DNA of 14,939 bases from a phage. Positions 7,285 through 14,699 of the stretch are shown here, in pieces. The DNA lies in the sequence record PX306536.1, one strand, 5' to 3'. The position numbers were made by a program, and so were the translations under genes. The notes below the pieces were generated by a model, which was not told the origin of the DNA, did not search any database, and was given only the letters and a program-made list of their open reading frames with translations. The first letter of the stretch is position 1, and every line of letters begins with the position of its first letter.

Positions 7285-7640
7285 GCGTTGAAAAAATCCT
7301 TTTCAGTTTGCACTTGATGGCGTCAAGCGCGTTGAAGGTTGAAGAACTGGCGCTTGATGAAAAGGAAGCCGAAGCCCTTGCCGGGGCAGTGCAGGAAGTG
7401 GCGAGCCATTACGATATTACCCCTGACCCTAAAATCATGGCATGGGCGGGATTGTTTGGCGTTTGCGCTTCTATTTATGGCCCCCGCGTTGCAGCTTATA
7501 AAATGCGGGCGGCGGCTGAAAAGCGCGATAAAAAGGAAGCGGCTAAACCGATGGCCCAAAAGGTACAGGAAGCCAAGCCAACGGAACATGACCCGGCAGC
7601 GCCTTACATTGAACAATTGCCAGTAAGTAACCTGCTATGA
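7029..7640 (+). CDS. X: Assembly (scaffolding-like) protein P10, 203 aa, overprinted on the 3' third of gene VI
   Basis: 203-aa ORF in a different frame from VI, overlapping it by 256 nt; contains two KRGRPAG AT-hook-like motifs. Confidence 0.8.
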   Translation: MAGKSSNGDGVKFADDAGSGNSIDGIAIIDPGTVTSASGGSGSDAGSGDSGNTPRKRGRPAGSGTGAKRGRPAGNSAAKKVPGNLGVEKILFSLHLMASSALKVEELALDEKEAEALAGAVQEVASHYDITPDPKIMAWAGLFGVCASIYGPRVAAYKMRAAAEKRDKKEAAKPMAQKVQEAKPTEHDPAAPYIEQLPVSNLL

Positions 7641-8320
7641 CAATACGAATGCCAAACGATAGACAACGTATTCTAGTGCTAGGCAAAACCGGCACCGGGA
7701 AAACTTGCGCCGCCGTTTGGCATTTATCCCAAAAGGATTTTAAGCGCAAGGCGTGGATTGTCCTAAACCATAAGGGCGATGATTTAATTGATTCCATTGA
7801 AGGGGCTAACCATGTAGATTTAAATTTTCGACCTAAAAAACCGGGGCTTTATATTTACCATCCTATCCCTGATGTTGATGATGCGGAAGTAACGCAATTG
7901 CTTTGGGATATTCACGCGATGGGCGATATTGGCGTTTATGTTGATGAAGGGTACATGATTCCAAACCGTGACCCGGCATTTCAGGCGCTACTTACTCAAG
8001 GCCGGAGTAAGAAAATCCCGATGATTATTTTAAGCCAGCGGCCCGTATGGCTTACCCGCTTTGCCATTTCGGAATCGGATTTTTTCCAGATATTCCAATT
8101 AGGCGACCAGCGCGATAGGCAAACCGTGCAAGGTTTTGTTCCGGTGGATTTGGAAAAATTAATGCAAGCGCCTGTAAATACAGTGCCAGCATTAAAAAAA
8201 TTCCATTCAATTTATTATGACGTGGGCGCTAATAATTGCGTTATAATGACACCGGTTCCTACCGCTGACGCCGTTTTGGCCCGGTTCGACCTTGGCAAGA
8301 AAAGAAAGCAAACCCTGTAA
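7637..8320 (+). CDS. IX: DNA packaging ATPase P9, 227 aa
   Basis: Walker A GKTGTGKT (7682-7705) and Walker B-like IGVYVDEG; ATGA overlap with the gene X stop. Confidence 0.92.
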   Translation: MTIRMPNDRQRILVLGKTGTGKTCAAVWHLSQKDFKRKAWIVLNHKGDDLIDSIEGANHVDLNFRPKKPGLYIYHPIPDVDDAEVTQLLWDIHAMGDIGVYVDEGYMIPNRDPAFQALLTQGRSKKIPMIILSQRPVWLTRFAISESDFFQIFQLGDQRDRQTVQGFVPVDLEKLMQAPVNTVPALKKFHSIYYDVGANNCVIMTPVPTADAVLARFDLGKKRKQTL

Positions 8321-8331
8321 AGGAAAACGCT

Positions 8332-8460
8332 ATGACTGAAAATATCATTAGTTGGAATGTCGCCAATTGGGTGACAGTAATTTTAATGGCGCTTGCCGGT
8401 TATGCGGTGCTGGCTTTAGCTGCCAAGGTAATTAACAACCGCGCACAGGAACCGGCATAA
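8332..8460 (+). CDS. XX: Small single-pass membrane protein, 42 aa, P20-like (packaging vertex)
   Basis: ATG at 8332 with RBS AAGGA; one hydrophobic helix (NWVTVILMALAGYAVLALAA); size matches PRD1 P20. Confidence 0.65.
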   Translation: MTENIISWNVANWVTVILMALAGYAVLALAAKVINNRAQEPA

Positions 8461-8588
8461 TGGTTAATTGGGAATTGTTGAAAAACCCCATTAATTGGCT
8501 TATCGTCATTCTCATGCTGACCATTGCAGGAATGGCGGCTACCCTTGTTTGTAACCACTTCGGCAAAAATGCCGTCACTTCGGAGTAA
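8460..8588 (+). CDS. Small single-pass membrane protein, 42 aa, tandem paralog of the preceding ORF (could correspond to P22 or an unnamed ORF)
   Basis: TAATG overlap with the preceding ORF; shares the NW-x-x-VILM transmembrane pattern with it. Confidence 0.55.
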   Translation: MVNWELLKNPINWLIVILMLTIAGMAATLVCNHFGKNAVTSE

Positions 8589-8594
8589 TTAAAT

Positions 8595-9782
8595 ATGGCA
8601 CAGGTTCAACAACTGACCCCCGCTCAACAGGCGGCATTGCGCAATCAGCAGGCTATGGCGGCAAACTTGCAGGCCCGTCAAATTGTCCTGCAACAGTCTT
8701 ACCCTGTTATCCAGCAGGTTGAAACGCAAACTTTCGACCCGGCTAACCGTTCCGTGTTTGACGTGACCCCGGCGAACGTGGGCATTGTCAAAGGCTTTTT
8801 GGTGAAGGTAACGGCGGCTATCAAAAATAACCACGCTACCGAAGCGGTGGCCCTTACTGACTTCGGCCCGGCTAACCTTGTTCAACGTGTCATTTATTAT
8901 GACCCGGACAACCAGCGCCACACTGAAACCAGCGGCTGGCATTTGCATTTTGTGAATACCGCCAAACAAGGTGCGCCGTTCCTTTCCAGCATGGTAACGG
9001 ATTCGCCCATTAAGTACGGCGATGTTATGAACGTCATTGATGCCCCGGCAACTATTGCGGCGGGCGCTACTGGCGAACTGACCATGTACTATTGGGTTCC
9101 GCTTGCCTATTCCGAAACCGATTTGACCGGGGCGGTTTTGGCGAACGTGCCGCAAAGTAAGCAGCGCCTGAAACTGGAATTTGCGAACAACAATACCGCC
9201 TTTGCGGCGGTGGGCGCTAATCCGCTGGAAGCGATTTATCAGGGCGCGGGCGCGGCTGATTGCGAGTTTGAAGAAATTTCTTACACCGTTTATCAGTCTT
9301 ACCTTGACCAACTGCCGGTAGGCCAGAACGGTTATATCCTGCCGCTGATTGACCTTTCCACTTTGTACAATCTGGAAAACAGCGCACAGGCAGGGCTTAC
9401 CCCTAACGTGGATTTTGTGGTGCAGTATGCAAACCTGTATCGCTACCTTTCCACAATCGCGGTATTCGATAACGGCGGCAGCTTCAATGCTGGCACCGAT
9501 ATTAACTACCTTAGCCAGCGCACGGCTAACTTTTCGGATACCCGGAAACTTGACCCGAAAACGTGGGCCGCGCAAACTCGCCGCCGTATCGCTACCGATT
9601 TTCCGAAGGGCGTTTATTATTGCGACAACCGCGATAAGCCGATTTACACCCTTCAATATGGTAACGTGGGCTTTGTCGTGAATCCTAAAACGGTCAATCA
9701 AAATGCCCGTTTGCTGATGGGTTACGAATACTTCACCAGCCGCACCGAACTGGTGAATGCTGGCACCATTTCCACCACTTAA
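8595..9782 (+). CDS. III: Major capsid protein P3 (double jelly-roll), 395 aa
   Basis: 395-aa ORF beginning MAQVQQLTPAQQAAL, which matches my recollection of the PRD1 P3 N-terminus; correct size and position. Confidence 0.95.
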   Translation: MAQVQQLTPAQQAALRNQQAMAANLQARQIVLQQSYPVIQQVETQTFDPANRSVFDVTPANVGIVKGFLVKVTAAIKNNHATEAVALTDFGPANLVQRVIYYDPDNQRHTETSGWHLHFVNTAKQGAPFLSSMVTDSPIKYGDVMNVIDAPATIAAGATGELTMYYWVPLAYSETDLTGAVLANVPQSKQRLKLEFANNNTAFAAVGANPLEAIYQGAGAADCEFEEISYTVYQSYLDQLPVGQNGYILPLIDLSTLYNLENSAQAGLTPNVDFVVQYANLYRYLSTIAVFDNGGSFNAGTDINYLSQRTANFSDTRKLDPKTWAAQTRRRIATDFPKGVYYCDNRDKPIYTLQYGNVGFVVNPKTVNQNARLLMGYEYFTSRTELVNAGTISTT

Positions 9783-9800
9783 TAAAGGGGGCATTCCGCC

Positions 9801-9944
9801 ATGCAGCTAATCACTGATATGGCGGAATGGTCTAAAAAGCCATTCCGCCCTGATATGTCGCTAACCGGCTGGCTTGCGTTTGTGGGCCTAATCATTGTTG
9901 CCATTATCCTTTGGCAGCAAATTATCCGTTTCATTATCGAATAA
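9801..9944 (+). CDS. Small membrane protein, 47 aa (size matches PRD1 P22; assignment uncertain)
   Basis: ATG at 9801 after GGGGG; one transmembrane helix; start codon sits in the left arm of an 11-bp inverted repeat, with an in-frame Met7 at 9819. Confidence 0.5.
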   Translation: MQLITDMAEWSKKPFRPDMSLTGWLAFVGLIIVAIILWQQIIRFIIE

Positions 9945-9954
9945 GGAAACTACC

Positions 9955-10038
9955 ATGAAAATTTTCGGCATTTCTGTTTTCACAATCGCCCTTATTGCCT
10001 TGGCTTACTACCTTGGCACTAAGCGCATTATCGGGTAA
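9955..10038 (+). CDS. Small hydrophobic protein, 27 aa (unnamed ORF)
   Basis: ATG at 9955 with RBS AAGGA (9943-9947); the translation is essentially one transmembrane helix. Confidence 0.4.
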   Translation: MKIFGISVFTIALIALAYYLGTKRIIG

Positions 10039-10043
10039 CGATT

Positions 10044-10166
10044 ATGCGCGGCAATTTGGCGCTTGCCATGATTCTATTTGGCTTTGTCGTGTATGCCGCA
10101 AATAGCGGCGCTTTCGGGCGCTTGCTTTATGTAATCGGGTTCCGCGATAAACCGGAGGGATATTAA
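10044..10166 (+). CDS. Small membrane protein, 40 aa (unnamed ORF)
   Basis: ATG at 10044 with a weak RBS; hydrophobic core ILFGFVVYAA; fills the gap before XVIII exactly. Confidence 0.35.
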   Translation: MRGNLALAMILFGFVVYAANSGAFGRLLYVIGFRDKPEGY

Positions 10167-10167
10167 T

Positions 10168-10440
10168 ATGCCCTTCGGTTTAATCGTTATTGGAATCATC
10201 CTTGCAATAGCCGCTTACCGCGATACGCTTGGCGAATTGTTTAGCATCATTAAGGACGTTTCAAAAGATGCTAAGGGGTTTGGCTATTGGGTATTGGCGG
10301 CGGTTATTTTGGGATTCGCGGCAAGTATCAAGCCAATAAAAGAGCCGGTTAATGCGTTTATGATTTTGCTGATGATTGTTCTACTAATCCGCAAGCGTGG
10401 CGCTATTGACCAAATTTCTAACCAACTAAGGGGCAGCTAA
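10168..10440 (+). CDS. XVIII: Membrane DNA-delivery protein P18, 90 aa
   Basis: Strong RBS GGAGGGA (10153-10159); two hydrophobic segments; size matches PRD1 P18. Confidence 0.75.
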   Translation: MPFGLIVIGIILAIAAYRDTLGELFSIIKDVSKDAKGFGYWVLAAVILGFAASIKPIKEPVNAFMILLMIVLLIRKRGAIDQISNQLRGS

Positions 10441-10604
10441 TGGGCGAGTTTGGCAAAACCCTAATAACGATTGTGACGGCTATTATTGGCGTTGCAATTA
10501 TTGCCGTTATCGTGTCACAGCGAAGTAATACGGCTGGCGTGATTCAATCCGCCACAAGCGGATTTTCCAATATCCTTAAATCGGCGCTTGCGCCTATCAT
10601 TTAA
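10440..10604 (+). CDS. XXXII: Membrane DNA-delivery protein P32, 54 aa
   Basis: TAATG overlap with XVIII, RBS AAGGGG; transmembrane helix followed by NTAGVI motif; paralog of the next ORF. Confidence 0.7.
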   Translation: MGEFGKTLITIVTAIIGVAIIAVIVSQRSNTAGVIQSATSGFSNILKSALAPII

Positions 10605-11089: not shown

Positions 11090-11200
11090 ATGAAAACCGC
11101 CATTTTTATATTGGCTGTAATGTTTGCGGCTTTGCTTTGGCTAGGCCGCGAGCATTGCATTTTGTGCCAATGGTTCAAACGCATTTCAAACGGGGCTTAA
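11090..11200 (+). CDS. Small membrane protein, 36 aa (unnamed ORF)
   Basis: ATG at 11090 following GAGGG; transmembrane helix FILAVMFAALLWL; exactly fills the XXX-XI gap. Confidence 0.4.
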   Translation: MKTAIFILAVMFAALLWLGREHCILCQWFKRISNGA

Positions 11201-14144: not shown

Positions 14145-14177
14145 GTTTGTTACCTTTGAATTTGAAGGGTAAAGAAT

Positions 14178-14204
14178 GGCCCCGCGCTGGTATCAGCCGG
14201 GGCC
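14178..14204 (-). other. GC-rich stem-loop in the XII-XIX intergenic region (possible attenuator or RNA stability element)
   Basis: GGCCCCG...CGGGGCC with extra inner pairing, roughly 11 bp with one bulge and a 4-nt loop; followed on the minus strand by AUUCUUUA. Confidence 0.4.
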
Positions 14205-14216
14205 GTGGCGCGTTGA

Positions 14217-14699
14217 TTAGGCTTCGGCCTTGGCCTTGGCCTTGGCGGCGGGCTTGGCTTCGCCAGCGGCTTCACCGGCAGCGGCAGGGGCAGGCAGCGC
14301 GGCCTTAACCTGATTGCGAAGCGCGGCCAGTTCATCCGATGCGGCGGGTTCAATCAGCGGCTTGACACCGTATTCATAACCAGTGTTGCCCTTTTCGGAA
14401 GGCTTGGCCCAAATTTCAACCGCAAAATCAACCGTGTTTTCACCATCCACGGCACCGGCAAGCAGGCTTTCCAGTACCTTCGGCAGAATCAGCGCACCGG
14501 AACGGAACACTTCACCAGTGGCGATATTCACGCCTTCAAATTCACCTTCAAACTTGATGAAGTCGCCAAAGGTGGATTGACCAACTTTCTTACCGCGAAC
14601 GCGGCCATAGATGGAAGCCAGCGCGGTATTTTCCTTGATGCTGTGCGGCTTCGGTTGTGCGCCAATGGTTTTCAGAGTCAGCTTGCTTACGATTTCCAT
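14217..14699 (-). CDS. XII: ssDNA-binding protein P12, 160 aa, with Ala/Lys-rich C-terminal tail
   Basis: 160-aa minus-strand ORF, first gene inside the right ITR; RBS AAAGGTAAC; tail AAKAKAKAEA encoded by a GGCCTT x3 repeat. Confidence 0.88.
   Translation of the reverse strand: MEIVSKLTLKTIGAQPKPHSIKENTALASIYGRVRGKKVGQSTFGDFIKFEGEFEGVNIATGEVFRSGALILPKVLESLLAGAVDGENTVDFAVEIWAKPSEKGNTGYEYGVKPLIEPAASDELAALRNQVKAALPAPAAAGEAAGEAKPAAKAKAKAEA

Follow-up and report, generated by a model that had tools for sequence, protein, structure and literature searches.

The junction between the major capsid protein gene III and the vertex protein gene XXII of a PRD1-like phage was found to carry a three-arm element, in which a central arm (B) is complementary both to an upstream arm (A) that runs into the start codon of XXII and to a downstream arm (A') inside the coding region of the same gene. 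A selected plus-strand RNA structure at this junction is supported by covariation of the arms, by low third-codon variation within them, and by a family-wide post-capsid structure with strand asymmetry. That the element serves as a reversible translational mask on XXII was judged to have about an even chance of being correct; we infer its action at the RNA level, the reduction of P22 synthesis and the trigger that would flip it.

The window, i.e. the whole stretch of 14,939 bp that was analysed, is a complete PRD1-like alphatectivirus genome, which is 99.7–99.8% identical to PR4 and vB_Bco-CSP1 across positions 8500–10500 (99.8% to PR4/CSP1-type phages in the gene III region) and collinear with PRD1, with gene coordinates matching the PRD1 record. 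The stop codon of gene III (TAA, 9780–9782) is directly adjoined by a second TAA (9783–9785), and the ATG of XXII at 9801 is located 19 nt 3' of the gene III stop. XX, III and XXII are adjacent genes, the low-copy vertex genes XX and XXII flanking III, whose product P3 is present at about 720 copies per virion; we know of no regulator of the differences in level between these three genes. The 47-aa product of the ORF at 9801–9944 is already known as P22, a packaging-vertex membrane protein with the amber mutant sus42, and for pairs of P20 and P22 a hexamer has been proposed (PMC4267777). Matches to sigma-70-like promoters were seen at 8432–8461 (10/12) and 8478–8506 (9/12), inside ORFi/XX and just upstream of III; a promoter at 8432–8506 would allow transcription of III without the low-copy gene XX. 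The features of the junction are compiled in Table 1.

Table 1. Coordinates of the three-arm element and of the genes on either side of the junction.
Feature	Position	Strand	Content	Basis
Gene III	8595–9782	+	Major capsid protein P3 (395 aa)	ORF list; same coordinates in PRD1 annotation
SD-like GGGGG of XXII	9787–9791	+	9 nt 5' of ATG	Sequence
Arm A	9792–9802	+	CATTCCGCCAT; non-coding spacer and AT of the XXII start codon	Repeat search; covaries with arm B
Gene XXII	9801–9944	+	P22 (47 aa), integral membrane protein of the unique packaging vertex	PRD1 annotation; PMC4267777
Loop 1	9803–9818	+	Codons 1–6 of XXII	Folds
Arm B (shared arm)	9819–9830	+	ATGGCGGAATGG; codons M7 A8 E9 W10	Repeat search; covariation
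Loop 2	9831–9839	+	TCTAAAAAG; codons S11 K12 K13, A-rich, single-stranded	Alignment of relatives, folds
Arm A'	9840–9849	+	CCATTCCGCC; codons P14 F15 R16 and first base of P17	Repeat search; in-silico opening cost

The initial annotation had described a perfect 11-bp inverted repeat around a 16-nt loop, starting 10 nt after the capsid stop codon, with the start codon of the next gene in the left arm and an in-frame ATG in the right arm. This was borne out in all parts by the sequence and a repeat search: CATTCCGCCAT (9792–9802) and ATGGCGGAATG (9819–9829) are complementary at 11/11 positions with 16 nt between the arms, the stem begins at 9792 behind the TAA at 9780–9782, A9801 and T9802 of the start codon lie within arm A, and the ATG at 9819 is in frame at +18 from 9801. 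A second repeat joins 9821–9830 (GGCGGAATGG) to 9840–9849 (CCATTCCGCC) by 10/10 bp around a 9-nt loop. G-C pairs account for 6 of the 11 bp of A:B and for 7 of the 10 bp of B:A', and the two helices are mutually exclusive, since arm B is common to both. Within A:B, the start codon is engaged by the pairs A9801–U9820 and U9802–A9819, with G9803 as the first loop base, able to pair with U9818; four extra inner pairs are possible in loop 1 (9803–9806 with 9814–9818, A9817 bulged). Loop 2 is variable among relatives and has an unpaired probability of ~1.0 at 9834–9837.

At the codon level, GCG GAA TGG (A-E-W) in arm B is the exact reverse complement of CCA TTC CGC (P-F-R) in arm A'. The sequence CTGATATG was observed as a direct repeat before arm B (9814–9821) and after arm A' (9850–9857), and therefore the in-frame ATGs at 9801, 9819 and 9855 are all situated at arm boundaries. 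The ATGs at 9819 and 9855 were considered as alternative starts of XXII and rejected, as no SD-like sequence is found 5' of either; codons 2–6 of XXII are kept at the protein level in relatives that start with ATG, GTG or TTG, with the SD, at the first position.

The 11-bp repeat carries no significance by itself, because a perfect 11-bp inverted repeat with a loop of 3–60 nt was contained in 85/300 dinucleotide shuffles of the window (28%). Two repeats of at least 10 bp with a common arm were obtained in 0/300 shuffles. The only other perfect 11-bp inverted repeat of the genome was located at 7648–7658/7714–7724 (55-nt loop), within gene IX (packaging ATPase) and close to its start at 7637. 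Folding of the 101-nt element region gave a z-score of −2.7, and the region ranks in the top 0.5% of the genome's 45-nt windows. The strongest 45-nt folds of the genome, which exceed that of the element (−22.5 kcal/mol), were seen at 11116–11160 (ORFq, before gene XI; −29.3 kcal/mol) and at ~14167–14211 and ~14611–14655 (−25.4 and −25.2 kcal/mol). Using ViennaRNA, A:B with its inner extension was calculated at −22.5 kcal/mol and B:A' at −17.7 kcal/mol. The minimum-energy fold is a hybrid of −31.6 kcal/mol, in which 9788–9792 (SD-like GGGGC) pairs with 9847–9851 (GCCCU), and structures forced into A:B or B:A' came within 1 kcal/mol of this minimum. Unpaired probabilities were 0.04–0.11 for the SD and ~0.2 for the AUG.

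As a proxy for ribosome access, the cost of opening positions −15 to +12 around the start was calculated and 25 plus-strand genes were ranked by it; all energies are model predictions with errors of 1–2 kcal/mol. When the RNA stopped short of A' (3' end no later than 9839), opening the XXII site was predicted to cost 23–24 kcal/mol (rank 1/25). With A' included, it was 8.3 kcal/mol (rank 13/25), which corresponds to ordinary occlusion at equilibrium, and with A' recoded synonymously in silico it was 19.3 kcal/mol, the occlusion being extreme only with A' absent or covered. Within the folding model, A:B is thereby a strong mask and A' an anti-sequestor, and the predicted mask is reversible because A' competes with A for B. 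Fractions of 0.44–0.76 and 0.24–0.51 were predicted for the two states in the eight window and isolate sequences, i.e. near 50:50, and the balance drifts widely in more distant relatives. A' lowered the predicted opening cost by 7.5–16 kcal/mol in 13/13 aligned relatives. At equilibrium, the most occluded of the 25 plus-strand genes was XVIII (start 10168; 22.7 kcal/mol); a palindrome, GGGATATTAATATGCC, spans the ORFl stop and the XVIII start (within 10107–10172), and a terminator-like hairpin, GGCGCTTTCGGGCGCT, followed by a T-rich tail, was noticed at 10107–10122.

Among cultured isolates, which are at most 10% divergent, the three arms are invariant, and the loops and downstream codons vary. 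Rarer relatives were retrieved from public assemblies by P3 and P22 protein searches, by which five lineages with 70–95% capsid-protein identity were found, and a gap-free alignment of 13 distinct sequences was built, eight of them being the window and isolates; in one relative with 90% capsid-protein identity (P0002), the contig ends inside arm A and only this arm is readable. In the alignment, 93% of the A:B cells are paired, with double-sided changes at two pairs, namely U-A to A-U (L017) or G-U (L148) and C-G to A-U (L147). For B:A', 96% of the cells are paired and one pair has changed on both sides. Independent events behind these scores are few (three for A:B, one for B:A'); the covariation score of A:B was reached by 0/500 shuffles, and 37/500 shuffles were as good as B:A'. 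The C-G to A-U exchange in L147 is part of a coordinated change of all three arms (C9797A, G9824T, C9846A), which is non-coding in A, synonymous in B and Arg-to-Ser in A'. L017 and L148 keep A:B and have B:A' weakened by a U-U mismatch, and L153 carries a mismatch in both helices. The sequence of loop 1 differs in L146, L147, L148 and L017 with the stem kept, and is invariant only among near-identical isolates.

Third-codon positions were found to vary at 2/5 sites in the arms versus 32/36 in the rest of XXII (Fisher p = 0.028), and both varying arm sites are matched by changes in arm A that keep A:B paired; for the cultured isolates alone, the test was not significant (0/5 vs 15/36, p = 0.14). 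Selection of both conformations is suggested by the three-arm change of L147 together with the conserved drop in opening cost that A' brings about.

For a wider comparison, ~150 loci with P3 homologues of 31–100% identity were assembled, the P22 homologue was located in each by the motif W..K/H-P-F..DM, and the loci were reduced to 76 lineages with <80% nucleotide identity to each other at the site. The 80-nt window after the capsid gene was among the lowest 10% of the locus in folding energy in 46% of the 76 lineages and among the lowest 25% in 72% (KS p = 3e-17), and this enrichment holds for short and long spacers alike. The proposal that starts of P22 homologues are generally more occluded than other starts was rejected (p = 0.21 over 76 lineages). 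With spacers of ≤25 nt (36 lineages), the structure overlaps the P22 start, whose occlusion exceeds that of the remaining gene starts in the locus (percentile 0.66, p = 0.008); equivalent stems enclosing the start or SD occur in unrelated sequences (13 bp in L100 and L031, 9 bp in L123, 10 bp in L112). In the 40 lineages with longer spacers, the hairpin is free-standing within the spacer and the P22 start is less occluded than average (percentile 0.37, p = 0.02), so that the post-capsid hairpin, and not masking of P22, is what is constant throughout the family. Of these 40 lineages, 25 have a GC-rich spacer stem of 7 bp or more without interruption, and in 8 of them the stem (≥7 bp) is followed by ≥4 T within 8 nt, at ~7x background density.

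At the post-capsid site, folding of the plus strand is favoured over that of the minus strand by 4.6 kcal/mol, compared to 0.5 kcal/mol in control windows (p = 8e-7), and this asymmetry points to coding-sense RNA and not to DNA. Across the family, the structure is conserved and the sequence is not; the motif W..K-P-F is conserved at the protein level. Several lineages showed individual features at this place. L019 (2697–2722), L020, L021, L023, L024 and L088 carry GGGGC-loop-GCCCC hairpins with T-runs between the capsid gene and the P22 homologue, with compensatory stem differences within the group (GGGGC/GCCCC, GGGGG/CCCCC, GGGGA/TCCCC); the P22 homologue starts with GTG or TTG in this group, and was missed by the gene caller in L019, L020 and L024. 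In L019–L024 and L088, which are the nearest of the long-spacer relatives (58–68% P3 identity), the hairpins resemble intrinsic terminators. L116 and L128 share a 15-bp spacer hairpin with a compensatory G-C to C-G exchange (GGGTGGGTG..CACCCACCC vs GGGTGCGTG..CACGCACCC). In L048 and L050, the capsid gene is succeeded by a hairpin of canonical terminator-like form and then, at the usual position of the P22-like gene, by a small protein with a hydrophobic, signal-peptide-like N-terminus.

In the mechanism proposed for masking, pairing of A with B would close the ribosome-binding site of XXII and pairing of B with A' would free it. A:B would form first, once B is transcribed, directly behind the P3 stop, so that ribosomes could neither initiate nor re-initiate at XXII. 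Judging by ribosome footprints, ribosomes that terminate at the P3 stop would extend no further than the stem base (~9792–9797), and therefore the stem core with the AUG would stay closed and re-initiation would be limited. A' would then compete for B, and the site would be open in a fraction of molecules only; as soon as a ribosome covered A', B would snap back onto A and the mask would close behind the ribosome. The expected outcome is a low output of P22, uncoupled from the very heavy P3 translation that ends 19 nt upstream. As the local form of the family-wide post-capsid stem-loop, the element may at the same time be a 3' barrier that favours the capsid mRNA. A broader model was put forward tentatively and is thought to be rather doubtful as a whole: a post-capsid plus-strand RNA structure would be common to the family and, in the PRD1 clade, would have become a bistable three-arm switch (P22 codons 1–17), flipped by ribosome traffic and metering P22 to P3 at ~1:100 without a protein regulator. 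According to this model, P3 termination would open the switch and a ribosome on A' would close it.

The initial annotation had offered two roles, stabilization of the 3' end of the capsid mRNA or gating of translation; both fit a selected plus-strand structure, the third arm A' having been overlooked. The gate had been thought to act on the downstream block of small membrane proteins, which is retained for XXII and dropped for the small genes 3' of it, as these have their own ribosome sites and the element would mask XXII only. The first of these roles constitutes the main rival to masking, namely that the element is only a barrier to 3'-end decay or a processing element and that masking of the XXII start is incidental. 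After a downstream endonucleolytic cut, e.g. in the A-rich loop 9831–9839, A:B would block 3'-to-5' exonucleases and the capsid mRNA would outlive the distal message. Such a barrier would account for the enrichment of post-capsid structure in the 76 lineages whatever the spacer length, for long-spacer hairpins that are free of a P22 ribosome site more open than average, for the GC-rich spacer stems in 25/40 of these lineages, and for a stem that begins in the window 10 nt 3' of the P3 stop. One hairpin would be enough for this purpose, however, whereas the L147 change and the conserved effect of A' suggest selection of both conformations, and ribosomes would melt the stem, which is part of a translated ribosome site and coding region. 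As the sole function, a decay barrier is considered rather improbable, and it is compatible with the mask and does not exclude it. That transcription terminates leakily or pauses behind the capsid gene is suggested by the GGGGC..GCCCC-type hairpins with T-runs at the same place in L019–L024 and L088 and by the stem-plus-T-run excess in 8/40 long-spacer lineages. Both window hairpins are GC-rich stem-loops, as in intrinsic terminators, but a U-run immediately 3' of the stems is absent (tail of A:B, GTCTAAAAAG; tail of B:A', CTGATATG/CTGATATGTC), both are located within translated sequence, and a promoter and terminator scan returned no promoter at the site and no terminator-like site at 9780–9860. 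The missing U-run excludes the element from the intrinsic terminators, and a leaky or pausing variant is regarded as quite unlikely. The label 'putative alc transcription terminator' in PKJ phage records was also considered and discarded, as it refers to a gene XXXII homologue and not to the III/XXII site.

The element could furthermore be devoid of function, arising as a by-product of A-E-W codons that are antisense to P-F-R codons, plus chance complementarity of the spacer. The exact reverse complementarity of the two codon triplets, the family-wide retention of W..K-P-F at the protein level and the frequency of lone 11-bp repeats in shuffles are in line with this. Arm A, however, is non-coding and yet complementary to B and covarying with it, third-codon variation is suppressed in the arms, the triple change of L147 includes a synonymous change in B, two repeats with a common arm were absent from all 300 shuffles, and relatives that have the same peptide motif in other codons lose the pairing and carry a separate hairpin. 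The compensatory changes and the fact that arm A is non-coding make this explanation unlikely. A role at the DNA level, in which a protein would bind the inverted repeat, or a hairpin or cruciform would form while replication intermediates are single-stranded, would agree with the protein-primed strand displacement of PRD1 replication, which exposes single strands, and with the observation that the repeat folds equally well as minus-strand DNA (−16.4 kcal/mol, z = −3.3). Against it, the G-U wobble pairs of relatives become A-C mismatches on the other strand, and the family-wide advantage of the plus strand in stability is seen here but not in control windows; on account of these two findings, a DNA-level role is held to be highly improbable, and a sequence-specific binding site in particular is argued against because the structure and not the sequence is conserved across the family.

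Masking of ribosome-binding sites and intercistronic hairpins are textbook principles, and what is newly seen is the instance at the III/XXII junction. A literature search, with the older PRD1 transcription papers outside its reach, retrieved no description of the hairpin and no PRD1 transcript map. A scan of 9600–10000 against Rfam 15 at permissive E-values gave best scores of 11–17 bits compared to gathering thresholds of 60–93, i.e. chance-level matches only. Ribosome-site-sequestering hairpins with a competing helix are known from ermC/cat leaders, from fold-back masking of starts and from the rules of de Smit and van Duin. As expected of a sequestor with its anti-sequestor, the start codon and SD are predicted to be paired in a stable helix, and an exclusive alternative helix to free the ribosome-binding site. 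Like the ermC/cat-type switches, the element holds the start codon and spacer in a stable stem, from which an exclusive downstream helix would release both, and its opening energy is likewise predicted to shift by ~15 kcal/mol between states. In contrast to them, it has no leader peptide or known stalling signal, its three arms do not extend beyond the spacer and codons 1–17 of the regulated gene, and its states are predicted to be nearly isoenergetic and not default-off.

Hairpins or terminators directly after major capsid genes are known from T7 (T-phi after gene 10), f1 (after gene VIII) and phiX174. The PRD1-like site corresponds to these in its location directly after the most highly expressed structural gene and ahead of low-copy structural genes, and relatives of the window phage have terminator-like hairpins at this spot; the hairpins of the window differ in lacking a U-run and in overlapping the start of the next gene, and no termination is predicted for them. 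With the intercistronic mRNA-stabilising stem-loops of the malE-malF REP and the Rhodobacter puf operon, the element has in common a stable stem-loop at the 3' side of the most needed polycistronic segment, here 10 nt behind the stop codon of the abundant P3 cistron. Those stem-loops are situated in untranslated spacers, whereas the element overlaps a ribosome site and coding sequence and has a competitor arm. In the replicase operator of MS2 and Q-beta, coat protein binds a hairpin that includes the start codon of the gene downstream, and a hairpin containing the start codon of the gene after the coat gene is also what is found here. Conserved loop or bulge nucleotides that a protein would read, as in MS2-type operators, were not found in the alignment of relatives; the window phage is moreover a DNA phage with a different capsid protein.

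PRD1 is the model of membrane-containing phages, and it requires the products of XX, III and XXII in widely differing amounts. P22 is predicted to be shut down when A' is recoded synonymously, and the proposed III/XXII switch would thereby offer a simple, testable handle. For PRD1-like metagenome contigs, the post-capsid hairpin is a landmark for annotation, as the small P22 homologue is often missed by gene callers. If the proposed masking is true, the stoichiometry between capsid and vertex proteins would be accounted for in part by a self-contained RNA switch between III and XXII.
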